Notes under the pieces: generated by a model
Told to the model about the DNA's origin: nothing
Database searches by the model: none
What the model saw: the letters and a program-made list of their open reading frames with translations, nothing else
Assembly (NCBI GenBank): GCA_041666915.1
Contig: JBAYFZ010000002.1
Location: 14,771 to 78,770 of the forward strand
Source: Minisyncoccota bacterium
Lineage (GTDB): Bacteria; Patescibacteriota; Minisyncoccia; Phycocordibacterales; PALSA-1337
Reading direction: 5' to 3'
Length of the DNA stretch: 64,000 nucleotides
Made by a program: the position numbers and the translations under genes
Shown here: piece by piece, positions 8,824-56,588 of the stretch
Layout: every line of letters starts with the position of its first letter
Numbering within the stretch: the stretch's first letter is position 1

Positions 8824-9004
8824 GACAGTTGATTAATCTTGATAGTATTTATTAGATTTGATATGCTTCTATTAGAAGTATGCAATAATAACTTATGAGG
8901 CGCTTTGGTGTTCCCTTAGAATATCTAGGGCTTGAGCTAAAGATAACCACCTTGTGAGACGCTACTTCTAACAAAGAACCCGCTAAGGCGGATTTTTTGT
9001 TAGA

Positions 9005-9655
9005 TTATTCTTTAAAAAGTTCCCTGCCCTCATCAATAATATTCCTTTGTAAAATCTTAAAAAATTCTTCCCCAAAATATCCACCTTCTAAATATCTAGC
9101 CAATGCGCCGACAACCCAATCAGCAATTTGGACATTAGCCATAGAAATAGAATCGACCATTTCAATTTGTAAAACCACATCTTTAGAAAGACTCAATAAG
9201 AGATAAGCTCTGAGAGATTCTTTAAATTCAGACTCTGACATTCCACCTAATCTTCTTCGATCACAAAATATCCTAAATTCCTTATCATCTGTTGGTAAAT
9301 ATGAGGCAAGTAATTCACCAACAATATTTGTATACAAGAGACCACTTCGTAATTTATTCTTATGGATATAATCTTTAGGAATATTCTTATTAAACACATA
9401 AACAAATCGTATATGTATATCGAGTCTAGAGAGTTCCCTCAACATTTTTAAACGTAAATCATCAGAGATTCCCGTATTTGACCATTTTATTTCATTCAAA
9501 TCACGCATCTTTACAGGAAAATGACTTCTGCACCATGCACGAAATCTTTTTGCTGTAATTTTTGGTTCTTCAATTGAAACAGATGCTATTACAAAATAAT
9601 TTTTATTATCACGTTTTGTAAATTGACCACTTTCATCCAGAAAAATATAAACCAT
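9005..9655 (-). CDS. DUF3800-family protein
   Basis: 216 aa starting MVYIFLDESGQF, the IDESG hallmark of DUF3800. Confidence 0.6.
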   Translation of the reverse strand: MVYIFLDESGQFTKRDNKNYFVIASVSIEEPKITAKRFRAWCRSHFPVKMRDLNEIKWSNTGISDDLRLKMLRELSRLDIHIRFVYVFNKNIPKDYIHKNKLRSGLLYTNIVGELLASYLPTDDKEFRIFCDRRRLGGMSESEFKESLRAYLLLSLSKDVVLQIEMVDSISMANVQIADWVVGALARYLEGGYFGEEFFKILQRNIIDEGRELFKE

Positions 9656-9674: not shown

Positions 9675-10583
9675 CTATTCCCAATTCACAACCTTAACTG
9701 TCTTTCCGTCAGAAGTTATCTTAACCGTTCCCTTCTCTTTCAAATTGAACTTCTTATCATCTTTAATATAAGCCAGAGGATCTATAACCTCTTTCTTTGC
9801 CTTCGCCCTTAAAACCGTAGACTTATTTGTAACCTTGCGTGAATACACCAAGTACTCTGGCTTAATTTCATTTATCAATTGTGAATAGATATTTTCCGGC
9901 AAAGCACTATGTGAAACTACTAGAACATCTGCATCGCCCAAAGTAGAAGATGGTGAAAAAACTATAGCCCTTTGGGTTTTATTAGAGGCACTACCCAAGA
10001 AGGTAATATTTGTTGAACCAAAAGAGATATTAAATAAAACCTCTGGTGAACTTGTCTTAGAATAAGTAAAATCACTATCTTTGATTGGAAATATGGATTT
10101 TATAGAAACTTTTCCATCTAAAACAATATTATCATCTGCCAAAACTTTGTCTGTTTTTATATTTTCAATATTTAAAGTATCAATAAAAGTAGAATAAATC
10201 TGATCCGTAGAACTAGCCAGACCAACAGTCTCTAATGTAACAGCAGGTACGAAGGCTTGATTGACTTTGTAACGCTCCACCACATCTATGAGGCCCGAGA
10301 CATTTTTACCATCGGTATTGGTAGCCATGATCATATCTATATAATGCGAATAAAAAGGAATAATCTTAGTCAATTCTCTTATAATCTCAGAATTTGGACC
10401 ACCATCAATAAGTATCCTTTTATCTTCTGGAGTACGTATGAACATGGAGCGTCCATTACTTAGAGAAAAAATGTATATCTCTAAAATAGGTGGCCTACTA
10501 GATTCTTTCCAAACGTAACCACCTAGACCACTAGCCAAGGCAGTAGAAGCTACAGCTATAACCAAAGGTTTTGATATATTCAT
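9675..10583 (-). CDS. metallo-beta-lactamase-fold protein resembling the C-terminal domain of ComEC/Rec2; N-terminal signal/TM
   Basis: 302 aa; IYIFSLSNGRSMFIRTPEDKRILIDGG resembles the ComEC MBL-domain opening motif. The separately encoded comEC at 11557..13392 lacks this domain. Shares an upstream box with comEC and comM. Confidence 0.55.
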   Translation of the reverse strand: MNISKPLVIAVASTALASGLGGYVWKESSRPPILEIYIFSLSNGRSMFIRTPEDKRILIDGGPNSEIIRELTKIIPFYSHYIDMIMATNTDGKNVSGLIDVVERYKVNQAFVPAVTLETVGLASSTDQIYSTFIDTLNIENIKTDKVLADDNIVLDGKVSIKSIFPIKDSDFTYSKTSSPEVLFNISFGSTNITFLGSASNKTQRAIVFSPSSTLGDADVLVVSHSALPENIYSQLINEIKPEYLVYSRKVTNKSTVLRAKAKKEVIDPLAYIKDDKKFNLKEKGTVKITSDGKTVKVVNWE

Positions 10584-10585
10584 AC

Positions 10586-10650
10586 CGTAATCATATAGAT
10601 ACGAGTTAAAATCCTGATTAAGAAAGGTTAAAGAAATGATGAAGATTTTT
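10586..10650 (-). promoter_or_regulatory. conserved upstream box (copy 1 of 3) preceding the MBL/ComEC-C gene
   Basis: Minus strand reads cttcatcatttctttaacctttcttaatcaggattttaactcgtatctatatgattacgg, then ATG. Near-identical to the box upstream of comM at 55012..55064 and similar to the one upstream of comEC at 13393..13450. Confidence 0.6.
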
Positions 10651-10757: not shown

Positions 10758-11372
10758 ATGAAACAATTCACCCTAAAAACATTCACCATTCCGGCTCTAA
10801 AAGGAATTTCTGCAAAAAATATTGAGGAGCATTTGAAGCTATACGCTGGCTATGTCAAAAACACCAATCTGATCCTTACGAAGATTGAGGAACTAAAAAA
10901 AGATACTGACTCATCAACCCCCTCAGGACAAGGTAATGCATATATCGTCGGAGAGATAAACAGACGTTTCGGTTTTGAATACAATGGTATGCGCAATCAT
11001 GAAATATATTTTTCTTCATTAGAAGGCGCAACCCCTCTTAGCGATAAAAGTTCCCTCAAAAAAACGATTTCTGAGACTTGGGGATCCTTTGATGCTTGGC
11101 TGGCAGAATTCAAACTTATTGGACTTACTCGTGGCATTGGTTGGGCTATTCTATATTATGATAATAAAGATGGTCGTCTCCTCAATGCTTGGATTGACGA
11201 ACAACATTTGGGACAACTTCAAGGTTGCTCCCCTATTCTCGCTATGGATATGTGGGAACATTCCTATGTAGCCGATTACCAGCCTTCTGGAAAGAAAAAC
11301 TATATTGAAGACTTTTTTGCAAATTTAAATTGGGAGGTTATTGAAGGAAATTTCAAAAAAGCGGTTAGGTAA
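10758..11372 (+). CDS. sod: Fe/Mn-family superoxide dismutase
   Basis: 204 aa; NHEIYF and DMWEHSYVADYQ match the NHxxYW and DxWEHAYY ligand motifs. The first ligand His is conserved (IEEH). Confidence 0.85.
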   Translation: MKQFTLKTFTIPALKGISAKNIEEHLKLYAGYVKNTNLILTKIEELKKDTDSSTPSGQGNAYIVGEINRRFGFEYNGMRNHEIYFSSLEGATPLSDKSSLKKTISETWGSFDAWLAEFKLIGLTRGIGWAILYYDNKDGRLLNAWIDEQHLGQLQGCSPILAMDMWEHSYVADYQPSGKKNYIEDFFANLNWEVIEGNFKKAVR

Positions 11373-11460: not shown

Positions 11461-11557
11461 GAAATACTTTGAGATTTTTGAGATTCTCTAAGAGCGGAAA
11501 ATCCGGGTCGGCCGCCAGCGTTCGCTTCGGCGAATATGCAGTATGGAGGGATCGCTT
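11461..11557. other. GC-rich structured element immediately 3' of comEC, closed by a 10-bp inverted repeat; possible small ncRNA or complex terminator
   Basis: gagattctct ... agagaatctc encloses about 75 nt that is much more GC-rich than the surroundings and contains a gcttcggc UUCG-type hairpin. Confidence 0.3.
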
Positions 11558-13392
11558 CATGAAAATGAGGTGCCCGTCCTCCAGAGAATCTCAAAGTTCT
11601 TGAGGTATTTTTTATCGGTGACAAAAGAGGTGATAATGATTATCTCATCATTTACAGATTCAAAAACGATTACATGTGGTTCTCCTTCATTATCAGGAAA
11701 GAATTTAGTAATCAATAAACGATTATTCTTTCCCTTAAGAATAATATCTGGGTTCTTGAAAATTATCACCATCATTTCAAGTAAGTTTTTACCTTCCATA
11801 TCTTTCTCTGCAAGATGCTTAAAAGTCCTTCTAGAAAAATGTATCGATTTAAATTTTGTATTTAACAATTGAGATACAACAACCGTATTAAAATTAGTCA
11901 AAATCTTATCATCAGGATTATCAATCAAAACATTTTTTGGTAACTTCTGAAATTCTTTAAACAACAAAAGTAATGTATTTGAATCTGATCTTGATCTAAA
12001 AAGTTTAAAGCGGGTAAAAATCTTTCTTCTTAAGTAAACCCCCGCAAACACCACATAAAATCCAACGACCCACCAAAAGGAAAATGCTTCAACTTGTAAT
12101 GAAGCAAACGGGAATCTGGCGAAATTGTTGACCATAAAAAGTTCATAGGAAAGCAAGAGATGACTTGCCCAACCAAAAACTTGAGCCAGTGGTAACCAAA
12201 ACATTCCTACAATCCCAGTAATAAAAACAAAAAGCATGGTTACAGGAATAAAAGGTAGAACCAAAATATTGACCAACATTCCAATTATTGAAATCTGTCC
12301 CATCATATACAAGATGTAAGGTGAAACAAATATTTGTGTAGCTATAGTTGAAGCAACAATACCTCGTATACCAAATCTCTCCGTAATAAATGTCAGGCGC
12401 TTTTCTATTGGACCAGCAAGAATGATAAGTCCTAGAGTTGCCAAAAATGAAAGCTGGAAAGAAGGGTCATGCAAAAGTATCATCGGATTTTGAACGAGCA
12501 TGAGAAGACCAGCAAACATGAGCGCATGAATAACACTATAATCACGTCGGATAATGTCAGCGAAAAGAGCAATACTCGCCATCAGACAAGAACGAACAAC
12601 CGTGGCACCACCGCCAACCAAAATTCCAAACAAAGCGATACCAATACCACCAACTGATATTCCCCAAACTCTAGGCAAAAATGAAAGTAGGCGACGCATA
12701 GCGTCTGCAACAATAGTGATGTTGTATCCAGAAAGTACAACGATATGTATAAGTCCAACTTTTCTAAAATCATCTAACAGATCATTCCCCAGAGCAGACT
12801 TCTCCCCCACCACCAGACCAGATGCCAGAGCAGAGTGTGGTTCCCCTAAAGTTTTCTTCAAATTATTTACGAAATTTCTTTTCAGAGAAAATAATTGTGA
12901 AGAGAGTTTAGAAAAAAATGATTGAATTCCAAACCAAGATGAATTATTTTGTTGAACAATTTTCGTCAATGAAACAACCGCACTTTTCATCTCAAAATAA
13001 ATATCATCTTTTGCCAGATAATTTTTGTAATCAAAGATGCGACCCGAACCACTGTCAAAATTTGTCGGCTGTAATAATTTTCCTTTGAAAGAAACTTTAT
13101 CTCCAAAAGAAAATCGTGGATAAAGTTTGGTTTTCAAGCGAATGAGAAATTCTGTATTACAATATTTTGACGTACTCACTACCGAAAGATCCAAAACTGA
13201 GACAACAAAGACTTGTCCGTTTTCTTTTCGTTCTGGTTCATTCTCAATAATCCCAACTCCTTGAACATTCTGTTTCACACAATCACCTATATCTGGTGGC
13301 TCTATACCAAAAGATTGCCAGATACGAAAAATGGCAGTAGCTATGAATATACTCCAAAAAATAAAAACACCTCTCTTCATGAGAAGCATCAT
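11557..13392 (-). CDS. comEC: competence protein ComEC/Rec2 (DUF4131 plus Competence domain, no MBL domain) with an uncharacterised ~150-aa C-terminal extension
   Basis: 611 aa; N-terminal OB-like region, polytopic membrane core with GLIHIVVLSGYNITIV. The C-terminal MBL domain is missing and appears to be encoded separately at 9675..10583. Confidence 0.8.
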   Translation of the reverse strand: MMLLMKRGVFIFWSIFIATAIFRIWQSFGIEPPDIGDCVKQNVQGVGIIENEPERKENGQVFVVSVLDLSVVSTSKYCNTEFLIRLKTKLYPRFSFGDKVSFKGKLLQPTNFDSGSGRIFDYKNYLAKDDIYFEMKSAVVSLTKIVQQNNSSWFGIQSFFSKLSSQLFSLKRNFVNNLKKTLGEPHSALASGLVVGEKSALGNDLLDDFRKVGLIHIVVLSGYNITIVADAMRRLLSFLPRVWGISVGGIGIALFGILVGGGATVVRSCLMASIALFADIIRRDYSVIHALMFAGLLMLVQNPMILLHDPSFQLSFLATLGLIILAGPIEKRLTFITERFGIRGIVASTIATQIFVSPYILYMMGQISIIGMLVNILVLPFIPVTMLFVFITGIVGMFWLPLAQVFGWASHLLLSYELFMVNNFARFPFASLQVEAFSFWWVVGFYVVFAGVYLRRKIFTRFKLFRSRSDSNTLLLLFKEFQKLPKNVLIDNPDDKILTNFNTVVVSQLLNTKFKSIHFSRRTFKHLAEKDMEGKNLLEMMVIIFKNPDIILKGKNNRLLITKFFPDNEGEPHVIVFESVNDEIIIITSFVTDKKYLKNFEILWRTGTSFS

Positions 13393-13450
13393 ACAAGCGC
13401 GAGTTTAAATCCTGATTAAGAAAGGTTAAAAAAATGATGAAGAAAACTTA
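13393..13450 (-). promoter_or_regulatory. conserved upstream box (copy 2 of 3) preceding comEC
   Basis: Minus strand reads gttttcttcatcatttttttaacctttcttaatcaggatttaaactcgcgcttgtatgatg overlapping the ATG. Confidence 0.55.
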
Positions 13451-18518: not shown

Positions 18519-18653
18519 AAATTTGGATGCGATTCTACCCAGTAGGCGATCCTGCTGGATCGGGAGCAAGCGAGGCTTGTGACTAGGCTGTATGAATAAT
18601 ACTGCCTAGTCACAAACGAGTGAAGCGACAACGAAGCGCGCCAAATTTACGCG
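18519..18653. repeat. intergenic repeat element, copy A (hairpin core ttgtgactaggc...gcctagtcacaa); carries a 25-nt insert relative to copy B
   Basis: About 110 nt near-identical to 36718..36824. Both copies lie directly 3' of a minus-strand gene stop. Copy A has the extra cccagtaggcgatcctgctggatcg. Confidence 0.7.
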
Positions 18654-18659
18654 TTTTGA

Positions 18660-20141
18660 CTAATCCAATTGTTGCCAAGAAATAACCTGATACTGATTGG
18701 TTGCTTGAGGAAAAGATGGCGGTGGACCATACATTAGATTTCCATCGTAAATAATGTCTCGGACATCATAACCTGTACCATCTGTATAACTAAAACCGTA
18801 TCGCAAAAATGTTGCGATCATGCCATATAAAGTGAGAGAACTTCTAGCATAACTCGTACAATTTGAATTATAATAAAATCTACCAACACGACCCTTCTCA
18901 GCCACCAAAGCGGCATCTATACGTAAAGTATTCGCACTAAGCATTCCAACATTTATATTACCTTGTGCAATAAGACCGATACTATCCACTCCGTCATAAT
19001 TCGTATACTTTAAATTTTCATTAACTGTTATATTTGCATTTTTAAGTGGATCAGTATTACCGATAATACCGGCCGCTACCGTTACTCGTGTATTGTTTAT
19101 CTGACCATCAACCCAAAGATGATCGTCAACAAAGATAACTCCATTAGTTGGAATAGGATAATTACCTAAAAGAGTTTGATTTGACGAAATAGGTGTCTTT
19201 ATACTCCATGTCCCCCACTGATAATACTTTGGACCATTGACTTGAGACCGTGCCGTAGCATCTGCCCCACAATCTGGAGAACCAGCAGTAGGAGGGGCTT
19301 GTAGAGCATTAACCTTGTACATATCGTAACTAGTTACACCTCCAGTAACCTTAAACACCATATGGTATCCAGACTTACCAGAAGACGTCCATTCTTTACC
19401 TCCGGCAGACGGTTGAGCCAATGCCTGTAATTGCGTCAAACCCAAAGTTAAACCTGTAAAATCTGAACTAGGAACAGGAAACTGTCTACCTGCGATAAAA
19501 ACATCTGGACGATTTAATACTGGAGTGTTAGGACGAGGGTCATCTGTACCAACTGTTGTATAAACTCCCCACTGAGTTAAACCTGTATCAGGATCTGTAT
19601 AAGTAGTTCTCGCACTAGAGATAAGGTTATGCGCCACACCATCAAACCTTATTCCCCCATTAGAATGGATTGGTCCAAAAACTTCTGTACCTTCTCCAAA
19701 ACGCATATTATCATTTGCAACGACAGCATATTTTGCGAGCGATGGTATAGCTAAAGTTTTTTCAATAGTTCTAGATATTGTAGAAGAAGCCAACGTCCCT
19801 TTAGAAACTATCTTCACAATCGTTGAACCAGTGATCGGCGGAGTGATAGTTAACGAAAATGTTCCTAAAATACTTCCATTTTTGTCTACAAAATCATGTA
19901 CGTAAGGACCAGAAGTAGCTGTTCCGTCTTTATAATCATTTGGTGATTGAGCCAAATGCCACTGATAATAATCGGCACCAGCTTCCGCTATTTGAAAAGC
20001 TTGTTCGCGTTGTGCAACGTTACGGATACTAGCCAACAATGTAGCTCCCCAATTGGTAAGACCAATGATGATAGTTATAGCGACAGACGCAAAGATTATC
20101 ACCGAGAGAATAATATCGCCACGATTATTGGAAATTTTCAT
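18660..20141 (-). CDS. large type IV pilus minor pilin / PilX-like protein (N-terminal TM helix)
   Basis: 493 aa; single N-terminal hydrophobic helix then a large Gly/Thr/Asn-rich extracellular region. Last gene of the pilB-pilC-pilin operon. Confidence 0.5.
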   Translation of the reverse strand: MKISNNRGDIILSVIIFASVAITIIIGLTNWGATLLASIRNVAQREQAFQIAEAGADYYQWHLAQSPNDYKDGTATSGPYVHDFVDKNGSILGTFSLTITPPITGSTIVKIVSKGTLASSTISRTIEKTLAIPSLAKYAVVANDNMRFGEGTEVFGPIHSNGGIRFDGVAHNLISSARTTYTDPDTGLTQWGVYTTVGTDDPRPNTPVLNRPDVFIAGRQFPVPSSDFTGLTLGLTQLQALAQPSAGGKEWTSSGKSGYHMVFKVTGGVTSYDMYKVNALQAPPTAGSPDCGADATARSQVNGPKYYQWGTWSIKTPISSNQTLLGNYPIPTNGVIFVDDHLWVDGQINNTRVTVAAGIIGNTDPLKNANITVNENLKYTNYDGVDSIGLIAQGNINVGMLSANTLRIDAALVAEKGRVGRFYYNSNCTSYARSSLTLYGMIATFLRYGFSYTDGTGYDVRDIIYDGNLMYGPPPSFPQATNQYQVISWQQLD

Positions 20142-20758
20142 AGGTTTGTCTTTAGGTTACGAAGACTTGCTTGTACACTATACAATATTGGTAAAGGAGA
20201 ATGAATCGGATCAACATCAATTTGTTGGTTTATCTTGATCAACCTGACAGCATAAGCCGAAACTGGTTGCACCAACGGAGAGCTGGTACCTGTATAGTTG
20301 GTATCATAATACTGAAATGATGGAAGTGCATTACCATTCATAACATTGGTAATCAAAGTTGTCGTTGATTGATTAGCTATCGGATATGTAGGAGGTGAAC
20401 CAGTTGGATTGATCACTGCGCGATACAAAGTGGTTCCGATAAGAGAATAAGTTATCTGCTCCGTCTTAGTATCGTTGTTTACATCAGAAAAGAAAGACAG
20501 TGTCGTACTACCAGTCCTCACCAAAGGATAAGCTCCGTTTGCACCAGGAGCTATTTCCCTCAATTCTTTCAACATTGTCCTTAAAATAGTCTGAGAATTT
20601 TGTGCAGCTGAAAATGAACTTGAGATTGAACTATTATAAGAAAAAATATTTGCAGAAAAAGTTCCAACCGCCATCATTATTATTGCAAAGATAGCCACAG
20701 CAACCATGACCTCGGCCAAAGTCATACCCCTTATTTTTAAATCTTTGTTATTTATCAT
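20138..20758 (-). CDS. prepilin-type N-terminal cleavage/methylation domain protein (type IV pilin / pseudopilin)
   Basis: 206 aa; KIRGMTLAEVMVAVAIFAII is a class III signal (G/FTLxE-like) plus hydrophobic helix. Confidence 0.7.
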   Translation of the reverse strand: MINNKDLKIRGMTLAEVMVAVAIFAIIMMAVGTFSANIFSYNSSISSSFSAAQNSQTILRTMLKELREIAPGANGAYPLVRTGSTTLSFFSDVNNDTKTEQITYSLIGTTLYRAVINPTGSPPTYPIANQSTTTLITNVMNGNALPSFQYYDTNYTGTSSPLVQPVSAYAVRLIKINQQIDVDPIHSPLPILYSVQASLRNLKTNL

Positions 20759-20777
20759 ATGAATGAATATTTTCTCG

Positions 20778-22547
20778 TTATAGACTCATCAAAATCGTCT
20801 GTTTCTGCCAACCGCTTCCAATAGTTACAAATTTAGATTGTGTAGCATATCCAGATTTTGTAACGGTCAAAGTGTATTCATCACCCAAAAGACCTTGGAA
20901 GATAACCTGCCCCGGTGGTAAACAAGCCGAAGTGTAAGAAAAGAAGACATCTGAAACTTTTGGAGTTACAGTAGCCGTTTCTGTCGTTAAATAAGTCTTG
21001 TAACGTACATATTCGTCACCATTATGAACAATATTTATCGGAGACCCAGGAACAGTGTAGTAAGTCCCTGATGTTCCATCTGGACCAAAATAATTCCAAG
21101 CTGATCCAGATGAACTTGCATTGGTTGCAAATTGCATCTTCACACTTGTTTCTCCAGACAAGATAGGCTGACTATTTGGATTCCAAGAAATAGTATAAAA
21201 ATTACTTGTAGTTCCTGTATCAAATATAGAAGATTCCAATGTACCCGTAGCGTTCACATCATAAGAACCAAAAAGATCTTTCAAGAGGATGTCTCCTGAG
21301 GAAGTGGCAGTATCAACCAAATTATTATCTGTGAAATATCTTCCGTCAGTAACATACATGTCTTGACCGCTTCCGCCAGACCAATCTGATTGGCTAAGAT
21401 AACCTTCACCTGTAACTTTAGCTTTGTAATAACCAGTCTTAGAAAGTTCAACAACAGCACCAGAGATCGGTAGATTCGTTGCACTATCCAAAACAGAGAC
21501 CATCAAACTATTGGAATCCTTTGGTACGACTACAATCTGTACATTCTGAGAATTGTCAGGATTCAAGGAAAATGGACTATCTGGATTTATACCAGCAACA
21601 TCATAAGAACCATCTGTAGGTGTAATAGTATATGTATCCCATTCCATAGAACTGAGATTCAAAAGACCAGATGCGTTGGTAGAAAGATTTTGTGAATATT
21701 TTGGTATTCCAGCACCAATTTCTTTTGCCCCAACCATTGAAAAGTCTACATTCCCAACAGGAACACAAAGTGGTGTAACACTAGAAAAGTGTAATGAGCT
21801 CAATTTATCTATGGAAAAACTTATCGGACTAACTTCCTGATTTAAAACAGTAACATTTGGCTTCGTAGGGTTGCTTACTTCTGCCAATGAATAAGTTTCT
21901 TCAGTAGAATAACCTTCTTTTGTTACAATGATTTTGTACATATCCTCGCCAGGGGGAACACCGATGATATTCAATATCCCAGAATTATTTGTTATATCAA
22001 CGTTAGTGACAGATGAAGTTGCAACACTTTGAACACTGACGGTTGCGCCTTGAACAGGTTCCCCATTACCATTGAATACTTGAACGACCAAAGCTCCCCC
22101 ATTTCCTGCAGATTGAAGATTGGCAGGAGAAATCAAACCCGTAAGAGATACCTGTCTAAAATTTTTACAATTTGAACAATCAACGTTTATTTCAACCAAC
22201 TTACTACTAGCTTGAACGGACGAGGTTGAAAGATTTATGTTACGGATAGTCAGACCGACATCAAAAGTCATACCTCCACGAGTCAATGTTTGCGTTTGAG
22301 GCAAAACTCCCAAAGGAATACCTGTCGTAAGACCAACGTTTACATATGGCATATTACGAATGATCTCAAATTGCTCTGCCACCAATTGAGTAGCCAAAGT
22401 CCTAGCCTGACTTCCACTAGCCAATTGAAGCAAGCTTACAAATGAGCCGTAAACAGCCATTGCTACAATTAGAAAAATTGCCGAGCCTACAAGCACTTCA
22501 ACGAGAGAGAAGCCTCTTTGTAATTTTTTAATTTTAAGACAAAACAT
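20778..22547 (-). CDS. large prepilin-type N-terminal domain protein (pilin-like)
   Basis: 589 aa; LQRGFSLVEVLVGSAIFLIVAMAV prepilin leader/helix followed by a long Ser/Thr/Asn-rich beta-like region. Confidence 0.65.
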   Translation of the reverse strand: MFCLKIKKLQRGFSLVEVLVGSAIFLIVAMAVYGSFVSLLQLASGSQARTLATQLVAEQFEIIRNMPYVNVGLTTGIPLGVLPQTQTLTRGGMTFDVGLTIRNINLSTSSVQASSKLVEINVDCSNCKNFRQVSLTGLISPANLQSAGNGGALVVQVFNGNGEPVQGATVSVQSVATSSVTNVDITNNSGILNIIGVPPGEDMYKIIVTKEGYSTEETYSLAEVSNPTKPNVTVLNQEVSPISFSIDKLSSLHFSSVTPLCVPVGNVDFSMVGAKEIGAGIPKYSQNLSTNASGLLNLSSMEWDTYTITPTDGSYDVAGINPDSPFSLNPDNSQNVQIVVVPKDSNSLMVSVLDSATNLPISGAVVELSKTGYYKAKVTGEGYLSQSDWSGGSGQDMYVTDGRYFTDNNLVDTATSSGDILLKDLFGSYDVNATGTLESSIFDTGTTSNFYTISWNPNSQPILSGETSVKMQFATNASSSGSAWNYFGPDGTSGTYYTVPGSPINIVHNGDEYVRYKTYLTTETATVTPKVSDVFFSYTSACLPPGQVIFQGLLGDEYTLTVTKSGYATQSKFVTIGSGWQKQTILMSL

Positions 22548-22557
22548 TTTTTTGATC

Positions 22558-23775
22558 CTACATTACATCTACCAACGAATACATAGGTTGAATCATAGAA
22601 ATTGCAAAGAAACCTACGGCCCCTCCTATAACCAATATGAGTATCGGCTCTATTATCGTAGACATGTCTTTGGTTTTCTGATTAACATCATTTTCATAAT
22701 ATTGAGCTACACCCATAAGCATCTCCCCTGTTTTACCGGTCTCTTCACCAACGCTCATCATTTCAATAAAAAAGACTGGGTAATATTTACCAAACTGACC
22801 GAAAGTCTTTGACATCAATTCTCCATTCTTTATTGAAAGAGAAGCTTTTTGTAAAATTCTTTGAAAATGAACATTCTGAACAACGTCTGCAGTAATATTT
22901 ATAGATTCAACAACATCAACCCCAGAACCCAACAATGAAGACATCGTCCTTGCTGTTCTAGCAGTATTAACTTCTTGAACGAGTTCTCCTATAACAGGAA
23001 TCTTAAGAATGGCAGAATGAAATATCTTTTTTCCAGAAGCTTTTTTTGACCACCAGACTAAAGAGCCGATAAGGATCAAAACAAGACCAAAGACGATCAC
23101 TCCTTGATCCCTGATGAGATTGCTTATATTCAAGACTACTTGGGTTGTCATAGGTAACGGAACATTGAGATCTGTAAAAGTCTTGAGCAAAGTAGGAATT
23201 ATAAAGATAAACATCAATACAGCGATAATTATCATTGCTGAAAAAATAACTGCAGGATACATGAGAGCACCACGGATTCTCTTATCCAAGGAATACGAAC
23301 TATCCATCTGACTGGAGACAATCTTCAGAGAATCAGCCAATGTTCCAGACTGTTCTCCGGCATGAACCATTGCGACGAATATCTTTGGAAAAACCTTTGG
23401 GTGTTTACTAAGCGCGTCAGCAAAAGTTATACCTTGATCAATATTCTTCACAAGATCAGCTACGACTTTCTTGAGAGATGCGTTGCGTGTTTGTTTCTCA
23501 AGGACTGCCAAAGCTCTAGAAAGAGCTAGACCAGCTTCCAACATTGCCCCCAAATTACGTGCGAAATTTATTTTCTCAATAGTCTTGACCCTATCAAAAA
23601 TAGATAGAGAAATATTCATATGCAGTCCTCTAGATTCACGCTTTTCTTTGAATTCAACTACTTCATCACCACCTTCTCGTAGAAGTTTGTACAATTCGTA
23701 ACGATCTACAGCATCTCTTTCGCTGTTATATATCTCTCCTGTAGATTTTTTTGCTTTGAAAGTGAAATGGGGCAT
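22558..23775 (-). CDS. pilC: type IV pilus assembly platform protein PilC (GspF family)
   Basis: 405 aa; two T2SS-F repeats and three TM segments. Confidence 0.9.
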   Translation of the reverse strand: MPHFTFKAKKSTGEIYNSERDAVDRYELYKLLREGGDEVVEFKEKRESRGLHMNISLSIFDRVKTIEKINFARNLGAMLEAGLALSRALAVLEKQTRNASLKKVVADLVKNIDQGITFADALSKHPKVFPKIFVAMVHAGEQSGTLADSLKIVSSQMDSSYSLDKRIRGALMYPAVIFSAMIIIAVLMFIFIIPTLLKTFTDLNVPLPMTTQVVLNISNLIRDQGVIVFGLVLILIGSLVWWSKKASGKKIFHSAILKIPVIGELVQEVNTARTARTMSSLLGSGVDVVESINITADVVQNVHFQRILQKASLSIKNGELMSKTFGQFGKYYPVFFIEMMSVGEETGKTGEMLMGVAQYYENDVNQKTKDMSTIIEPILILVIGGAVGFFAISMIQPMYSLVDVM

Positions 23776-23782
23776 TATAGTT

Positions 23783-23820
23783 TAGTGCAAAATTAAAAGT
23801 GCAAAATGAAAAGTGCAAAG
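23783..23820. repeat. tandem AGTGCAAA motifs (three copies) in the pilB-pilC intergenic region
   Basis: tagtgcaaaattaaaagtgcaaaatgaaaagtgcaaag. The same motif forms the arms of the palindrome at 26468..26601 and recurs at about 42745..42775. Confidence 0.5.
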
Positions 23821-23823
23821 TTA

Positions 23824-25572
23824 TTACTCTGAAACGACACGGAGCACTTCTTCAATCGTTGTCATTCCCTGTACACACTTGAATATACCGTCTTCTAACA
23901 TTGTGAGCATTCCTTCTTTCTTGGCCTGAATTTCAATATCATTTGAAGTAGCATTTTTCATTATAAGATCTTTGATAGATTGAGTCATAACCAAGACTTC
24001 GTGGATACCAACACGACTCTTGAAACCATCGTCATCTCCAGCTGGTACAGCTTTCCAGAAATTGATCTTATCCCAAGTGTCGGACGATTTTACTATTTTT
24101 TCTGTCTTCAAATAACCAAGGACTCTGTCTAGATCAACAACTTTTGCCAATTGATTGAATTCATCCTTGGATAACTTGTATTCCTGTTTTGAATCAGTAA
24201 GTTTACGAACCAAACGCTGACCGATAACAATATCCAAAGTAGAAACCAACAAAAATGGCTCAACACCCATATCCAAAAGACGAGGCATCGCTCCTGCTGC
24301 CGAGTTGGTATGCAAAGTAGAAAGAACCAAGTGACCAGTCAAAGCGGCATTGACTCCAAGTGCTGCGGTTTCACCGTCACGGATTTCTCCAACCATGATA
24401 ATATCTGGATCTTGACGGACCAAAGTTCTGATACCTTGTGGAAATGAGAAACCGATCTCTGGACGAACTTGAGTTTGATTGATACGAGCCATCTGGTATT
24501 CAATAGGGTCTTCAATAGTTGAAATATTCACATCTGGAGTATTCAAAATATCCAACATGGTATACAAAGTCGTAGTTTTTCCAGATCCAGTGGGACCTGT
24601 CATGAGTATCATTCCCGTCGTCTTATTCAAAGTTTTATGAATCGCTTCCAAGCCTTCGCCGTGGAAATTCAAATATTCCAAAGTGAATCCGGATATACTT
24701 TCTCTAAGTAAACGCATAACGATCTTTTCACCATAATATGTTGGCAAAATAGAGACACGGAATGAAACTTTTTCTTCATTCATGTCAACTTTGAAACGAC
24801 CGTCTTGAGGTAAACGTTTTTCATCCAATTTTAGATTGGCCAAAACTTTGATACGAGCAGATACCGAAGGACCGGCCTGTTTTGGAAGTACCATCGCATC
24901 ATGTAAAAGTCCATCTATACGATAACGAACCAAGACTTGTTCCTCCATTGGTTCTATATGGATATCGGAAGAATTTTGCAAGATAGCGTGTTTTATCAAA
25001 GTATCAACAATACGCACAACCGGCATATCTTCTGCGATCTTTTTTAAATCAGCTTCTGAGGCAGTATCCCCTTCTTCTTCTGAAATCATCTTGAGTGAAG
25101 CGGTCTCTTTTTGGATCAAATCACCAAATTCAGCCTTGAGACTCTTTTGATACTGAACCAATGCTTCTTTAATAGAATCCGAATCAGTCAAACGAGGTAA
25201 TATTTTCAAATTGACTTTCTTTTTAATGAAATCAATAGCGGGCAAATCGTTGACATCCAACATCGCAACTTCCAAAGCGACATCTGTCTTTTTAAAAGCG
25301 ACAATGTTATGAGCACGAGCAATCGGTTCTGGAATAAGAGAGAGGGTCTCAAAAGGTAATTTTTTACCTTTAAGGTCTACGAAAGGAATACCAAAGACAT
25401 AAGCTTGCATTCTACGGAGATTGTCTGCACTGATCTTGCCTGACGAAATCAATACATCGCCTAAATGCTTTTTCTTTTTCTCGCTTTCTTTCTTTGCATC
25501 TTCAAGGTCATCCTTGGTTACAAGACCAGAATCAAGAATAAATTTATATAATTGGGTATCTTCAACGAACAT
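23824..25572 (-). CDS. pilB: type IV pilus assembly ATPase PilB (GspE family); start placed at the MFVEDTQ Met
   Basis: N-terminal GspE-N region, Walker A TGPTGSGKTTTLY, Asp/His boxes. The longer ORF to 25644 would run into an upstream terminator hairpin. Confidence 0.9.
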   Translation of the reverse strand: MFVEDTQLYKFILDSGLVTKDDLEDAKKESEKKKKHLGDVLISSGKISADNLRRMQAYVFGIPFVDLKGKKLPFETLSLIPEPIARAHNIVAFKKTDVALEVAMLDVNDLPAIDFIKKKVNLKILPRLTDSDSIKEALVQYQKSLKAEFGDLIQKETASLKMISEEEGDTASEADLKKIAEDMPVVRIVDTLIKHAILQNSSDIHIEPMEEQVLVRYRIDGLLHDAMVLPKQAGPSVSARIKVLANLKLDEKRLPQDGRFKVDMNEEKVSFRVSILPTYYGEKIVMRLLRESISGFTLEYLNFHGEGLEAIHKTLNKTTGMILMTGPTGSGKTTTLYTMLDILNTPDVNISTIEDPIEYQMARINQTQVRPEIGFSFPQGIRTLVRQDPDIIMVGEIRDGETAALGVNAALTGHLVLSTLHTNSAAGAMPRLLDMGVEPFLLVSTLDIVIGQRLVRKLTDSKQEYKLSKDEFNQLAKVVDLDRVLGYLKTEKIVKSSDTWDKINFWKAVPAGDDDGFKSRVGIHEVLVMTQSIKDLIMKNATSNDIEIQAKKEGMLTMLEDGIFKCVQGMTTIEEVLRVVSE

Positions 25573-25624
25573 TAGGTAAATTATATCAGATATAAGAGAT
25601 GACTGCTTATGCACAGCTTTGAAT

Positions 25625-25660
25625 AAACGAAAACCCGCAACCATATTTCAGATTGCGGGG
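25625..25660 (-). terminator. rho-independent terminator (cccgcaa-N12-ttgcggg plus T-run on the minus strand) for the 25708..26217 gene
   Basis: Minus strand: ccccgcaatctgaaatatggttgcgggttttcgttt. Identical stem-loop to the terminator at 26618..26654. Confidence 0.7.
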
Positions 25661-26460: not shown

Positions 26461-26467
26461 CGATGTT

Positions 26468-26601
26468 TAGTGCAAAGTGAAAAGTGCAAAATGCAAAATT
26501 TTAGTTAATGGTTAATAGTTATTATATTCAAATACTATCTAACTCAAAAACTCAATAACTTTTCACTACAACTTTGCATTTTGCACTTTTCACTTTGCAC
26601 T
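26468..26601. repeat. long perfect inverted repeat: 29-nt arms (agtgcaaagtgaaaagtgcaaaatgcaaa) separated by about 75 AT-rich nt
   Basis: Left arm 26468..26497, right arm 26573..26601 as exact reverse complement. Arms are built from AGTGCAAA-type units. Confidence 0.7.
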
Positions 26602-27329: not shown

Positions 27330-28307
27330 TTACACTTCACTAATAACTTCAAAACCACTAAAGCTTCCAGTTATAGCGAGACCAATTACAGTATCTGCTA
27401 TATTTTGACTTTTTATTTTTCTGGCCGTTTCATTCAAAGTAGCGCCAGATCCCAGAGCATCGTCTATGAGCAAAATGGTTTTGAACTTCCTAGACTCATC
27501 TAGAATGATTGTGGACTTAGCATTCTCAATACGATCCTCTAGTTTAGTAAGAGTCTTCTGTGGAACAGATATTTCTTTTTTCACCTTTACCAATGAAATG
27601 ACCGGAACAGAAAGATTGAGTTGTCTTTCTATCTCTTTCATAAGCTGTAACTCTCTTTTAACAGTCGGAGGAATATAGCCAATAGCATCTACTGACCATT
27701 TTTTTATGAAAGATTCAATACGTGGCTTTATCTCACTTATCAATTCACGAATAAGTTCCTTGCTCTGACTTTGTTTTGCATAAAGCAAAATTTGACCGAG
27801 TTTTGTCTTACCAAACCTTTCTATACTATAAAAATCCAAATAAAAAACTTCGTCAAGGAATACTTCTTTGAATGTATGTTTAATTTTATATTTACCATCT
27901 ATAAAACCATCTTTTCTATACTCGGAGAATTTCTTGTACGACTGGACGTAATCATTGGCTGTTTTTATAGGATTCTCATTTCTCTTATTGCACCATTCTA
28001 TAAAACCTATAATTCCTTCTTTCCTTTCTCCGCTTGGGGATATGAGAAGAAAATTTTCATTTATAATCTTCTCTGTTTTCTTATCAAAGATGATTTCGGA
28101 AATAACATCCTTTTTTATGTCATTAATAAAATAGTACACTTTTGGAGGTGTACCTCTTTTGTGCACAAGATTTTGTTCCAACAAATTAAAAAGTTGTTTT
28201 CTAACTGCTCTAGTTGTAATACCAAGAAAATCAGCCAGCTCATTACCTGACGCTTGACCTTTATCTTTTATATAATTAATAATTTTTTCTGATGTCTTCT
28301 GGTCCAT
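27330..28307 (-). CDS. winged-HTH plus phosphoribosyltransferase-domain protein (PurR/ComF-like architecture)
   Basis: 325 aa; N-terminal GNELADFLGITTRAVRKQL wHTH. C-terminal ILLIDDALGSGATLNE is a PRTase PRPP-binding motif. Confidence 0.6.
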   Translation of the reverse strand: MDQKTSEKIINYIKDKGQASGNELADFLGITTRAVRKQLFNLLEQNLVHKRGTPPKVYYFINDIKKDVISEIIFDKKTEKIINENFLLISPSGERKEGIIGFIEWCNKRNENPIKTANDYVQSYKKFSEYRKDGFIDGKYKIKHTFKEVFLDEVFYLDFYSIERFGKTKLGQILLYAKQSQSKELIRELISEIKPRIESFIKKWSVDAIGYIPPTVKRELQLMKEIERQLNLSVPVISLVKVKKEISVPQKTLTKLEDRIENAKSTIILDESRKFKTILLIDDALGSGATLNETARKIKSQNIADTVIGLAITGSFSGFEVISEV

Positions 28308-34465: not shown

Positions 34466-34523
34466 CAACCTTACTCTCTCGTTACCGTTAAAAAATCCTT
34501 TGCAAGTTTGCAAGGGATTTTTT

Positions 34524-34723
34524 AGTGCCACAATCGCAAGAACATTCCTTTTGAAAACCTGCGAGACTCGCTCCGTTTATTTTCTAAGTAAAATGCTCAG
34601 GAATTACGGAGGACTAATCGTCCTCTCGTAATTCCAAGGACATTCGCATTTTACTAAGAAACTAAAACTGCGCTCAGACAGGTTCTCGGTTTTCAAGAGG
34701 AATGTTCTTGCGATTGTGGCACT
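34524..34723. mobile_element. MITE-like palindromic element, copy 1 (about 170-nt core shared with 58101..58308; locus-specific 25-nt terminal inverted repeats)
   Basis: Outer inverted repeats agtgccacaatcgcaagaacattcc / ggaatgttcttgcgattgtggcact. Core gaaaacctgcgagactcgctccgttta...ggaggactaatcgtcctctcg...ggttttc is itself an imperfect palindrome and near-identical to the 58-kb copy. Confidence 0.6.
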
Positions 34724-34771
34724 ACCATCAACACCTTGCCAACTTGTCCCCTATTCGTTAGACTGGCTTTC

Positions 34772-36717: not shown

Positions 36718-36824
36718 AAATTTGAATGCGATTCTAGGAGCAAGCGAGGCTTGTGACTAGGCTGTATGAATAATACTGCCTAGTCACAAACGAGTGAAGC
36801 GACAACGAAGCGCGTCAAATTTAC
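36718..36824. repeat. intergenic repeat element, copy B (same family as 18519..18653)
   Basis: ggagcaagcgaggcttgtgactaggctgtatgaataatactgcctagtcacaaacgagtgaagcgacaacgaagcgcg is shared. Lies directly 3' of the clpP stop. Confidence 0.7.
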
Positions 36825-36829
36825 AAGTC

Positions 36830-37411
36830 TTACTTCTTGACTGATGTAACCTGATCGACTAACCCATACTTCTTAGCTTCTTCTGCGTCCATGAAGAAAT
36901 CGCGATCAACATCCTTTTCAATCTTCGCCAAAGTCTGACCTGTATTTTTTGCAAGAATCTTATTCAACATCAAGCGAGTCTTCAAAATATGTTTTGCACT
37001 GATCTCAATATCAGAAGCCTGACCTTCTGCACCACCCAAAGGCTGGTGAATCATAACTTCAGAATTTGGTAAGGCTATACGCTTTCCTTTTGTACCAGCA
37101 GAGAGAACTAAGGCTGCACCCGATGCCGCAAGGCCAACACAAACTGTAGAAATATCATTTTTAATATGTTGCATCGTATCTATGATAGCCAAAGTCGCTG
37201 TTACAGAACCGCCAGGAGAATTTACATAAAGAGAAATCTCTTTCTTTGGATCTTCGGATTGTAAGAATAGAAGCTGAGCAATTACCAAGTTGGCAGTATG
37301 GTCATCTATAGGCCCGCCAAGAAAAATGATGCTATCTTTTAGCAAACGAGAATATATATCATAAGCGCGCTCTCCAAAACTTGATTTTTCTATTACTGTT
37401 GGTATTAACAT
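36830..37411 (-). CDS. clpP: ATP-dependent Clp protease proteolytic subunit
   Basis: 193 aa; [10 protein letters not shown] (catalytic Ser), MIHQP (His). Confidence 0.95.
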
Positions 37412-42238: not shown

Positions 42239-42367
42239 GTTGCGTGACGGAGAGCCGGATTGTTACCGTTCCAATTGTTGTCGAGCCAGTTCCAATTGAG
42301 AATCACCTTGTCGCCGTTCTCGTAGAGATACGGGACATTGAGGTTACCGTTGCGGTTCCGCACGTAT
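42239..42367 (-). repeat. DGR template repeat (TR)
   Basis: About 128 nt, roughly 85% identical to 42791..42917. On the coding (minus) strand the mismatches sit almost exclusively at TR adenines (AAC/AAT codons). Shares an identical GC-rich 18-nt 3' end (cggctctccgtcacgcaa) with the VR. Confidence 0.85.
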
Positions 42368-54969: not shown

Positions 54970-54978
54970 CAGAAAAAT

Positions 54979-55004
54979 CCCGAGATATTGTCTCGGGATT
55001 TTTC
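54979..55004 (+). terminator. rho-independent terminator after the DksA-like gene
   Basis: cccgagatattgtctcggg hairpin plus atttttc. Confidence 0.6.
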
Positions 55005-55011
55005 TTAATCA

Positions 55012-55064
55012 TTTCTTTAACCTTTCTTAATCAGGATTTTAACTCGTATCTGTATGATTATTAG
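55012..55064 (+). promoter_or_regulatory. conserved upstream box (copy 3 of 3) preceding comM
   Basis: atttctttaacctttcttaatcaggattttaactcgtatctgtatgattattag then ATG. One mismatch over about 50 nt to the box upstream of the MBL/ComEC-C gene. Confidence 0.6.
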
Positions 55065-56588
55065 ATGAGCTTAGCAAAAACATACAGCGCACAACTAATA
55101 GGACTCATGTCAGAAGTTGTGACAATAGAAGTAGACATTTCAAACGGTCTTCATTCATTTTCCGTAGTTGGACTCGGCGATAGGTCCGTAGAAGAATCAA
55201 AAGATCGTATATCTGCAGCTATAAAAAATAGCAACTTCAAATCTCCAAAGCAGAAAAACCAGAAAGTAGTCATATCACTAGCTCCAGCAGATATACACAA
55301 AGAAGGGCCTTCTTTTGATCTCGGCATGGCGATAGCTTATCTATCTGCATCAAAAGAGATAGATTTTTCTCCAGAAAATAAACTATTTTTAGGAGAATTA
55401 TCACTTGAAGGAAACTTGAGAAAAATCAGTGGTATATTACCGATTCTTTGCCAAGCAAAAGCCCAAGGTTTCACCGAAGCTTTCATTCCAAAAGACAATT
55501 CCGAAGAATCATCCTTGGCCCAAGGCATAACCACATATCCCGCCTCCACCTTAAATCAAATCATTGAACATCTTACTGGTATAAAAAATATAAAACCGAA
55601 TGAAACCATTTATTCAAATCCAGAAACATCTTCATCTTTTGGAACAAATATGAACAATGTTCGCGGTAACGAAACAGCCAAACGTGGTTTAGAAATAGCT
55701 GCAGCCGGTGCACACAATATCATCATGTGCGGTCCTCCAGGGACTGGCAAAACCATGCTTGCTCAATGTTTCACTTCAATATTACCGGATCTTTCGTACG
55801 AACAAGCAATAGAAGTCACTGGCATACACTCTACCGCTAGGACACTAGAACGAGGTTTGATATTCCGTCCACCATTTAGGTCGCCCCATCATACAGCCTC
55901 ATACCCATCTATTGTTGGTGGGGGAGGATTTCCAAAACCCGGCGAAATAACCTTAGCCCACAGAGGTGTATTATTTTTAGATGAATTTCCAGAATTTGAC
56001 CGCAGTGTCATAGAAGCTTTACGTCAACCATTGGAAGATAGGATGATAACCATTTCTAGAGCCAGAGGAGTAGTCACTTTCCCAGCACAATGTATCCTCA
56101 TTGCATCTATGAATCCTTGTCCTTGTGGAAAAGGTAGGCGCAATGGTTGTACCTGTACCCTAAAAGCCCTTGAAGCTTACAATAGAAAAATGTCCGGACC
56201 TATCATAGACCGACTAGATATATGGCTAAACGTTAGTAAAGTAGATTACAAACAACTTGGTGCCAAAGATTCGTCAGGAGAAAGTTCAGAAACTATAAAA
56301 GACCGAGTTATTGGAGCAAGAAAAATTCAAGAACAAAGATTTGCGTCCCACGGAATTCAAAAAGTCTTCAATGCCGAGATGAATGCTTTGGATATAGAAA
56401 AAATTGTTATTCTAGACGATGACGCTCGTATATTACTTACTTCATCAGCAGAAAAATTGGAACTTTCTGGTAGGGCTTTTCATAGGGTTATAAAGGTGGC
56501 ACAGACCATTGCTGATTTAGAAAAGAGCAGTTCAGTTAAAAAGCATCATATTTTGGAGGCACTGCAGTATAGGCAGAAAGTGGGGTGA
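55065..56588 (+). CDS. comM: Mg-chelatase-like AAA+ protein ComM/YifB
   Basis: 507 aa; N-terminal Lon-protease-like S5 fold, Walker A GPPGTGKTMLA, C-terminal ChlI-like. Confidence 0.9.
   Translation: MSLAKTYSAQLIGLMSEVVTIEVDISNGLHSFSVVGLGDRSVEESKDRISAAIKNSNFKSPKQKNQKVVISLAPADIHKEGPSFDLGMAIAYLSASKEIDFSPENKLFLGELSLEGNLRKISGILPILCQAKAQGFTEAFIPKDNSEESSLAQGITTYPASTLNQIIEHLTGIKNIKPNETIYSNPETSSSFGTNMNNVRGNETAKRGLEIAAAGAHNIIMCGPPGTGKTMLAQCFTSILPDLSYEQAIEVTGIHSTARTLERGLIFRPPFRSPHHTASYPSIVGGGGFPKPGEITLAHRGVLFLDEFPEFDRSVIEALRQPLEDRMITISRARGVVTFPAQCILIASMNPCPCGKGRRNGCTCTLKALEAYNRKMSGPIIDRLDIWLNVSKVDYKQLGAKDSSGESSETIKDRVIGARKIQEQRFASHGIQKVFNAEMNALDIEKIVILDDDARILLTSSAEKLELSGRAFHRVIKVAQTIADLEKSSSVKKHHILEALQYRQKVG

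Follow-up and report, generated by a model that had tools for sequence, protein, structure and literature searches.

A phased hexamer array upstream of DNA-uptake genes in Paceibacteria and a candidate OmpR-family regulator

Three boxes and the genes behind them

The window, a 64,000-nucleotide (nt) stretch of contig JBAYFZ010000002.1 from a Minisyncoccota bacterium, contains three near-identical boxes of ~55 nt directly 5′ of three genes related to DNA uptake, namely comEC, a gene for a separate protein homologous to the C-terminal metallo-β-lactamase (MBL)-like domain of ComEC, and comM (Table 1). The agreement between the boxes is beyond chance. The 24-mer TTTAACCTTTCTTAATCAGGATTT has exactly three matches in the window, at 10609-10632 (−), 13407-13430 (−) and 55016-55039 (+), and gave none in 100 shuffles of the window even with up to 3 mismatches allowed; all three boxes face the start of the gene behind them. 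A repeat finder paired the copies over 56–77 nt with an identity of 87–88%. Between copies 1 and 3, 44 nt match without a difference, and over ~51 nt, as an earlier note on this DNA had claimed, only a single position differs. The principal observation of that note, a box 5′ of three DNA-uptake genes described as two ComEC pieces and comM, proved real, and its gene identities are borne out by Pfam, NCBIfam and a family profile compared with the Protein Data Bank (PDB). Its intervals found the right sites, but the interval 13393..13450 just misses the −10 hexamer of copy 2 and the interval 55012..55064 misses the first hexamer of copy 3.

Rather than a single ~50-nt word, each box is a set of four hexamers, TT(T/A/C)A(T/A)C, repeated with an exact 11-nt period and located on the same face of the helix, at about −27, −38, −49 and −60. 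A −10 hexamer, TATGAT, follows at a constant distance from the last box. At the three window sites, the stretch 16–18 nt before the −10 contains no −35-like hexamer, and a sigma-70 consensus scan returned no promoter at any of them, because the −35 is missing. A correctly placed TG before the −10 is also lacking in all three window promoters, which therefore look weak on their own. At comM, the terminator-like hairpin AAAAATCCCGAGA / TCTCGGGATTTTT of the upstream dksA/traR-type gene abuts copy 3, the first nucleotides of which fall within the T-run of this hairpin, and the box itself must therefore contain the comM promoter. With the ATG 6–8 nt past the −10, the layout indicates that the box-driven comEC, MBL-like and comM mRNAs are probably leaderless. 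Many other genes in the window carry TAnnnT, often preceded by TGn, 5–9 nt before the start codon, with no Shine-Dalgarno sequence. Because the same −10 serves so many window genes, the core promoter and the leaderless layout are ordinary for this genome, and what sets the three promoters apart is the array upstream.

Being a conserved block of ~50 nt that adjoins the start codons on their 5′ side, the box might also be a transcribed 5′ leader, riboswitch-like or targeted by a small RNA, or, given that TTATC is the first half of the DnaA box, a DnaA-box array through which DnaA regulates transcription; in oriC, low-affinity DnaA sites likewise lie 11 bp apart. We hold both forms of this explanation to be extremely improbable. 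The terminator abutting copy 3 leaves no room for a promoter upstream of a leader, the −10 lies downstream of the boxes, and the repeats are direct rather than complementary. Rfam, searched at the gathering threshold, returned no RNA family at the boxes or at the box-driven non-coding stretches of related loci. The DnaA 9-mer TTATNCACA has only TTATC in common with the array: its positions 6–9 (CACA), which carry the specificity of DnaA, vary between boxes (AGG, TCT, GTT, AAA).

The MBL-like protein is 100% identical to a protein annotated as hypothetical (MFA6554383.1, WCS89_02630) in a metagenome-assembled genome of Candidatus Paceibacterota and has more than 130 homologues in Patescibacteria. 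Searched singly against Pfam and NCBIfam it gave no match, while a profile of 23 family members matched residues 530-746 of PDB entry 30bt_A (E 1.2e-13) and entry 9ic4_A (E 2e-12), and PF00753 was matched by three of the 23. The metal-binding HxHxDH region is degenerate in this family, and because the histidine/aspartate motif of ComEC is replaced by ATNTxGKNVSGL, the domain is probably catalytically dead. The neighbouring comEC gene encodes the remainder of the channel (PF03772, 1.7e-50; PF13567, 2.7e-9; TIGR00360 above its cut-off), reaching 76 bits against the full-length equivalog TIGR00361, for which the cut-off is 190. Its start is most likely ATG 13380 rather than ATG 13392, because the resulting N-terminus, MKRGVFIFWS, aligns with those of relatives and ATG 13392 lies inside the −10 hexamer. 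The last ~137 amino acids (aa) of this ComEC resemble PBECR2, a barnase/EndoU/colicin-like nuclease domain, at a score marginally below the cut-off (E 5.8e-6; 26.9 bits, cut-off 27.1). The ComEC proteins of relatives have 460–480 aa and lack this tail, and a PBECR1 protein is itself box-driven in locus L133; the PBECR2-like tail may replace the lost MBL nuclease. Between comEC and the MBL-like gene lies an oppositely oriented sodA-like gene. The third gene, comM, gives a full-length match to the YifB-family model and contains the Pfam domains Mg_chelatase, ChlI and Mg_chelatase_C; an exact look-up of its protein sequence gave no match. Judging from the layout, the DUF3800 gene behind the MBL-like gene is probably co-transcribed with it from copy 1, and in locus L170 a DUF3800 gene is directly box-driven. 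A DUF3800-V RNA recognized by Rfam adjoins the DUF3800 gene of the window.

Table 1 Positions of the boxes, their genes and other elements in the window
Feature	Position	Strand	Remarks
Array, copy 1	10605..10643	−	TTCATC 10643-10638, TTTAAC 10632-10627, TTAATC 10621-10616, TTTAAC 10610-10605
−10 TATGAT, copy 1	10590..10595	−	9 nt past last box, 6 nt before ATG 10583
Array, copy 2	13403..13441	−	TTCATC 13441-13436, TTTAAC 13430-13425, TTAATC 13419-13414, TTAAAC 13408-13403
−10 TATGAT, copy 2	13388..13393	−	9 nt past last box, 7 nt before ATG 13380
Array, copy 3	55005..55043	+	TTAATC 55005-55010, TTTAAC 55016-55021, TTAATC 55027-55032, TTTAAC 55038-55043
−10 TATGAT, copy 3	55053..55058	+	9 nt past last box, 6 nt before ATG 55065
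Terminator-like hairpin	54973..55003	+	of upstream dksA/traR-type gene (PF01258); abuts copy 3
MBL-like gene	9675..10583	−	302 aa, membrane-anchored; homologue of ComEC C-terminal beta-lactamase-like domain
comEC	11557..13380	−	DUF4131 and Competence channel domain, no MBL domain
PBECR2-like tail of ComEC	11557-11970	−	
comM	55065..56588	+	YifB-family Mg-chelatase-like AAA ATPase; TIGR00368 556.9 bits, cut-off 362.4
sodA-like gene	10758-11372	+	between comEC and MBL-like gene
DUF3800 gene (PF12686)	9005..9655	−	19 nt downstream of MBL-like gene, same strand
DUF3800-V RNA	8874-8969	+	Rfam, 76 bits
pilB-pilC-minor-pilin operon	20138-25644	−	
TTTGCAC/GTGCAAA repeats	23780-23826		period about 14 nt, upstream of pilC
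TTTGCAC/GTGCAAA inverted pair	26465-26601		upstream of pilB region
Winged helix-turn-helix and phosphoribosyltransferase gene	27330..28307	−	PurR-like; own leaderless-type promoter
Reverse transcriptase gene	40815-41903	−	
99-nt repeats	42266-42364, 42816-42914		87% identity
~200-nt element	34523-34724, 58094-58305		97% identity
95-nt repeat	18563-18657, 36737-36831		96% identity

The array in relatives and its target genes

Seven relative loci were fetched through homology of the MBL-like protein (40–63% identity), with the motif playing no part in their choice. All seven keep the gene order comEC, sodA-like gene on the opposite strand, MBL-like gene, and in six of them a phased array precedes comEC as well as the MBL-like gene, as in L176 or, in degenerate form, L174. 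The conservation upstream of comEC in related genomes that the earlier note predicted is therefore found. In L002-L005, both genes are preceded by 4–6 hexamers with an 11-nt period, mostly TTTATC and also TTTAAC and TTGAAC, followed by a 9-nt gap, TAnnAT and, usually 6–8 nt further on, the ATG; a phased scan for four hexamers matched only the comEC and MBL-like promoters in each of these 20-kb loci. The spacers between the hexamers are nearly identical within a genome and divergent between genomes.

We then scanned more widely with two patterns, the counts below referring to the matches listed. A loose pattern, three hexamers plus TAnnAT applied to one genome per species, gave at least ~24 Patescibacteria loci, about three quarters of the listed matches being chance or unrelated arrays in AT-rich genomes; the genome to which the window belongs was not among the matches listed. 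A tighter pattern, without the −10 and applied to metagenomes, gave 48 stretches, nearly all of this array type; the taxon labels of several metagenome-assembled genomes (MAGs) are unreliable. In the metagenome copies found without the −10, TAnnnT lies exactly 9 nt past the last hexamer in 40 of 45 and at 10 nt in 4 more, and 26 of those 40 have TG at −15/−14, the motif in relatives often reading TGnTAnnnT. In a position-by-position consensus of 68 distinct copies, the fourth hexamer is strongly TTTATC, although the pattern left it unconstrained, and an AGGAW spacer is strongly conserved, although it was free in the first scan. The number of hexamer units per promoter ranges from 3 to at least 7, with TTTATC as the lineage consensus. 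A weight matrix trained only on copies of other genomes, with the window sites excluded, scored copies 1, 2 and 3 at 60.5, 52.5 and 49.3 bits; the next best independent window position, not a shifted register of the three sites, reached about −23 bits, and the shuffled maximum was −5.8. A phased scan for four hexamers likewise matched the three known sites only (shuffles, 0.3). We read the three window boxes as copies of one promoter module that recurs throughout Paceibacteria.

A conserved sequence at a fixed distance from the −10 before competence genes could, in principle, be read by an alternative sigma factor specific to competence, which would make it a genuine counterpart of the com-box/cin-box or of SigH promoters. 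The anatomy makes this very improbable: 3–7 direct repeats with an 11-bp period that reach to about −70 or beyond do not form a −35/−10 pair, no hexamer lies 16–18 bp upstream of the −10, and the −10 itself is of the TAnnnT/TGn type that serves unrelated window genes.

The near-identity of copies within a genome, spacers included, raises a different explanation, in which the copies are a dispersed or mobile repeat, such as a miniature inverted-repeat transposable element (MITE), a repetitive extragenic palindrome (REP)-like element or a gene-conversion cassette, and their position before com genes is incidental. In some genomes, the same genome-specific hairpin always precedes the array, and box-driven IS200/RAYT-like genes are flanked by such hairpins, both of which fit a mobile repeat. 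Every copy, however, is oriented towards a gene start, with a fixed −10 spacing and usually a fixed ATG spacing too, and orthologous genes keep the array across genomes in which the array sequences have diverged. No copy was found inside genes, in the window scan and the box-bearing loci, and none in a viral collection that was scanned. Moreover, the repeats are direct, whereas MITE or REP elements need inverted repeats or a hairpin and a placement independent of gene starts. We consider a mobile repeat improbable for these reasons, and cassette spread would in any case explain where the copies came from, leaving their promoter role in place.

REP-like, genome-specific hairpins lie directly upstream of arrays in L002 (7180-7250 and 9830-9895), L127, L132, L134, L137 and L144, and the box sites of the hairpin-flanked IS200/RAYT-like genes are at L081 5821 (−) and L116 7076 (−). 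These observations hint that promoter modules may spread together with REP-like hairpins.

Downstream genes from both scans were clustered and annotated, with copy counts not de-replicated by genome. Among the matches listed, an LCAT-like secreted lipase/acyltransferase of 800–960 aa accounts for at least 8 copies, ComEC for at least 7 in addition to the window, ComM for at least 6, an N-methyl (type IV) pilin and a toxin-like PemK/MazF-like protein for at least 5 each, a short GspE/PilB/ComGA-type ATPase and the MBL-like protein for at least 4 each, an 85-aa coiled-coil protein and an IS200/Y1_Tnp-like protein for at least 3 each, and DprA, PBECR1, DUF3800 and an rpsF leader for at least 1 each; several further copies precede transcripts of two kinds that appear to be non-coding. 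In CAZHHB01, a species representative, all five sites among the matches listed belong to DNA-uptake or pilus genes (comEC, the MBL-like gene, comM, the ATPase and pilin), and on one metagenome contig, a window-type box also stands before a lipase gene and an rpsF leader. The same element is thus found upstream of several DNA-uptake genes and is kept at their orthologues elsewhere, and the further copies at com and pil genes that had been expected were found, in other genomes, at comM, comEC, the MBL-like gene, dprA, the ATPase and pilin. Of the proposal that the box is the shared promoter/operator of a small DNA-uptake regulon, the shared element and the competence targets stand, as far as sequence comparison goes, while the regulon is neither small nor confined to uptake. 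The target list supports an array that defines a regulon centred on competence and broader than proposed.

Within the window, the weight matrix found no box upstream of the pilB-pilC-minor-pilin operon, recJ or rnhA, and a tblastn search of the window with the other regulon families returned a pilB paralogue only. The pilB-pilC-minor-pilin operon has a TTTGCAC/GTGCAAA motif in place of the TTTATC array, with one group of repeats upstream of pilC and an inverted pair upstream of the pilB region.

Two features of box-driven transcripts in other loci were also recorded. A box-driven tRNA-like RNA, classed by ARAGORN as an odd tRNA with an oversized anticodon loop, occurs in L093 (5227-5000, −) and also in L056, L128, L160 and L167; in L093, a canonical TTGACA-17-TATACT promoter lies behind it, together with a short transcript that has a 17-nt complement to the tRNA-like anticodon arm. 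The leadered box genes (pilin, lipase and 85-aa protein) of L020, L030, L059, L071, L078, L109 and L119 have in common ATTATT-N2-4-AATAAT, which begins 6 nt past the −10, at about +1 to +16 after it, and may represent a further operator or form a 5′ hairpin.

A candidate regulator and its possible mode of action

To look for the protein that reads the array, we used tblastn with E. coli PhoB. The search returned OmpR-family genes in three box-bearing Patescibacteria loci, each ending ~95 nt upstream of an array on the same strand and encoding a protein with the Pfam domains Response_reg and Trans_reg_C. Three further loci fetched via homologues of this regulator all have an array of 49–64 bits, 30–70 nt past the stop codon. 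The regulator is followed by an array (49–71 bits) within 30–100 nt in L131, L132, L169/L179, L177 and L178, and since L179 duplicates L169, five distinct genomes have this arrangement. The family is highly conserved, comprising more than 1250 homologues (E < 1e-40) with 57–70% identity across Paceibacterota and Taylorbacteria. The box of L178 is the exact variant of the window, TTAATCATTTCTTTAACCTTTCTTAATCAGGATTTTAACTCG, and the L178 regulator is MFA6554008.1; because this accession lies 375 numbers from MFA6554383.1 and the box variant is identical, L178 and the window probably come from the same MAG.

The recognition helix reads AHITNLR in P0135, the regulator of the window-type genome with TTAATC/TTTAAC boxes, and AHIRNLR or a close variant (AHMRNLR, THIRNLR, AHIRNVR, AHIRNIR) in P0121, P0125, P0202, P0205 and P0220, the regulators of genomes with TTTATC boxes, the R being kept throughout the latter. 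The change from R to T together with TTAATC/TTTAAC boxes is a possible, single case of co-variation between regulator and site. In the five regulator genomes, a conserved hairpin, GTTATGnGTCGACATAAC, comes after the array, together with ~150–200 nt that hold no open reading frame (ORF) and end in a hairpin (L131 1573-1760; L132 4291-4110, −; L169 1691, −; L177 4817; L178 4855; with a variant in L021). This stretch, to which no Rfam family corresponds, is a putative small RNA of the regulon. Behind it lies a gene for a membrane protein of 70–74 aa with its own promoter.

Matches of the loose scan outside the Candidate Phyla Radiation (CPR) lend independent support to this type of regulator, many of them being arrays of three TTAATC hexamers with an 11-bp period. 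In L040, L043, L044, L064 and L072, TTAATC-N5-TTAATC-N5-TTAATC and a −10 directly follow genes for an OmpR-family regulator and a kinase-sized membrane protein; in L113, the array lies directly upstream of the regulator gene; and in L040 and L044 it drives a conserved ORF of 80–95 aa. The hosts of these arrays include Desulfobacterota, Elusimicrobiota and Bdellovibrio.

Given the observed anatomy, conservation, specificity and targets of the array, we favour, with moderate confidence, an activator-dependent, Pho-box-like promoter array that serves a competence-centred regulon and would be read by an OmpR/PhoB-family regulator, and we infer binding of the array by the candidate regulator, an activating effect and the positions of the transcription starts. 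Activation by an OmpR-family regulator is favoured because the repeats recur at each helical turn, the 9-bp gap to the −10 is rigid, a −35 is absent and an OmpR-family gene is adjacent. In the proposed mechanism, the phosphorylated response regulator would bind the repeats head-to-tail as tandem dimers and recruit RNA polymerase in place of the missing −35. The DNA-uptake machinery would thereby be co-induced, comprising the ComEC channel, its split-off MBL-like domain and the ComM helicase in the window genome, and DprA, the GspE/PilB/ComGA-type ATPase and pilin in relatives, with the secreted lipase, toxins and small RNAs induced together with the uptake genes.

Several observations weigh against this model. 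The regulator gene is absent from the window, as searched by tblastn with the same PhoB query, no partner kinase was found beside the regulator, and its closest NCBIfam subfamilies, which are CusR/CopR-like, score below their cut-offs. The link between regulator and array is one of gene adjacency and, in a lineage with strong synteny, may amount to a single ancestral event. L175, a more distant relative, has no recognisable array, the pilB-pilC-minor-pilin operon of the window has no box, and several targets (the lipase, MazF-like toxins, IS200-like proteins and RNAs) have no obvious tie to DNA uptake. Copies within a genome are near-identical over 45–60 nt, spacers included. Binding of a regulator would not require so long a match, a hint that modules are copied or undergo gene conversion; such copying or homogenisation would not conflict with a promoter role. 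In many copies, a good extended −10 might work by itself, with no activator, and an array that overlaps the −35 and spacer region is compatible with repression too.

Repression through the same array is the main rival, and we regard it as unlikely. The regulon would be the same, and the bound protein would be a repressor whose oligomer, covering −22 to −66, blocks an otherwise constitutive extended −10 promoter until released by a signal. Besides the overlap of the boxes with the −35 and spacer region, the TG at −15/−14 in 26 of 40 copies would suit such a promoter, and the −10-only leaderless promoters of other window genes suggest that the core promoter might need no help. On the other hand, the 9-nt distance between box and −10 in 40 of 45 copies fits a contact with RNA polymerase and would be unneeded for occlusion, the three window promoters without a correctly placed TG look weak by themselves, and OmpR/PhoB-type arrays at such positions are typically activating.

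Extending the activator model, we tentatively speculate that the array, the orphan OmpR-family regulator and the adjacent putative small RNA could together act as a master switch that controls host exploitation in Paceibacteria, a possibility that we hold to be doubtful. A single signal would co-induce DNA uptake (ComEC, ComM, DprA and pilus parts), the large secreted LCAT-like lipase and toxin genes, and bacteria unable to make nucleotides or lipids would harvest both from the host or from lysed neighbours. The module would have spread between genes as a cassette, which would account for the near-identity of the copies within a genome.

Two regulator candidates in the window itself, the PurR-like winged helix-turn-helix and phosphoribosyltransferase gene and the dksA/traR-type gene upstream of comM, were set aside, as only proximity ties them to the boxes. 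The winged helix-turn-helix and phosphoribosyltransferase protein is a possible nucleotide-sensing regulator.

Other repeated elements were found in the window. The two 99-nt repeats beside the reverse transcriptase gene look like the template and variable repeats of a diversity-generating retroelement, and L002 likewise contains bAvd and a reverse transcriptase. The ~200-nt element, one copy of which lies shortly before the trigger factor gene and the other shortly before a UvrD-like helicase gene, has nested inverted repeats with ~40-nt arms 128 nt apart and no Rfam match, and could be a structured RNA or a MITE. The 95-nt repeat contains a 39-nt palindrome, TTGTGACTAGGC...GCCTAGTCACAA, and is REP-like or terminator-like.

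Significance and comparison with known systems

Few systems are conserved across the CPR, and competence genes belong to them. ComEC-dependent natural transformation has been demonstrated in Saccharibacteria, in a report the main text of which does not discuss com gene regulation (PMC10633639), and in our full-text literature searches, no com regulatory element or regulon was found described for Patescibacteria. The array supplies, for the uncultivated and ultra-small Paceibacteria, a defined cis element of simple architecture together with a concrete candidate regulator, MFA6554008.1 and its family, and its target list ties DNA uptake to pilus parts and a secreted lipase. It thereby offers a first handle on when and why such bacteria switch on DNA uptake, and could serve as a ready-made inducible promoter for CPR genetic tools.

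The proteins behind the boxes depart from the canonical arrangement. As in canonical ComEC (30bt), in which DUF4131, Competence and MBL domains form one chain, the window ComEC has DUF4131 and the Competence domain; by contrast, its MBL domain is encoded by a separate gene and has lost the metal motif, and a PBECR2-like C-terminal domain has been gained.

The streptococcal com-box/cin-box, an extended −10 read by the alternative sigma factor sigma-X, marks late competence genes. Like it, and like the SigH promoters of Firmicutes, the array is one cis element that marks comEC, comM/radA-type, dprA, pilin and ComGA genes, and ComK boxes are comparable in function as markers of a competence regulon. 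The earlier note's description of the box as a com-box analogue therefore suits its function and not its anatomy: the three window promoters have no TACGAATA-like extended −10, the −10 being TATGAT/TAnnnT as at unrelated genes, and the common element is a direct-repeat array upstream of this ordinary −10. ComE of S. pneumoniae, a LytTR-family activator, controls early genes and comX, and not directly the uptake machinery, through two 9-bp repeats about 21 bp apart. Both systems place a response regulator, here a candidate, on imperfect direct repeats upstream of competence genes; they differ in that the candidate here belongs to the OmpR family and would act through 3–7 hexamers at 11 bp directly on comEC, comM, dprA and pilin.

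In γ-proteobacteria, the CRP-S sites of the Sxy/TfoX regulons place an activator site before comEC/rec2, comM, dprA and pilus genes, and this regulon, too, was defined by comparative genomics through a non-standard activator site across many genomes (PMC1635313). CRP-S is, by contrast, a 22-bp palindrome bound by a CRP dimer with Sxy, whereas the array described here consists of direct repeats and would be read by another regulator family.

The closest resemblance in geometry is to promoters of the Pho-box type, represented by the E. coli PhoB pho box, the four TT(A/T/C)ACA repeats of B. subtilis PhoP and the TTTATA-N5-TTTACA site of KdpE, where regulator dimers in tandem, bound head-to-tail, make contact with RNA polymerase. 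Direct-repeat hexamers or heptamers with a 10–11-bp period, here exactly 11 nt, sites for at least two dimers, and an array that replaces the −35 and ends at a fixed distance of ~10 bp before the −10 are common to both, as is an OmpR-family regulator encoded beside one array. The Paceibacteria array differs in its box sequence (TTTATC/TTAATC/TTGAAC), in having up to seven units and in its probably leaderless mRNAs, and it precedes DNA-uptake, pilus and lipase genes, where promoters of the Pho-box type serve phosphate or potassium genes. Its candidate regulator, the binding of which is predicted here, appears to be an orphan with no adjacent kinase.

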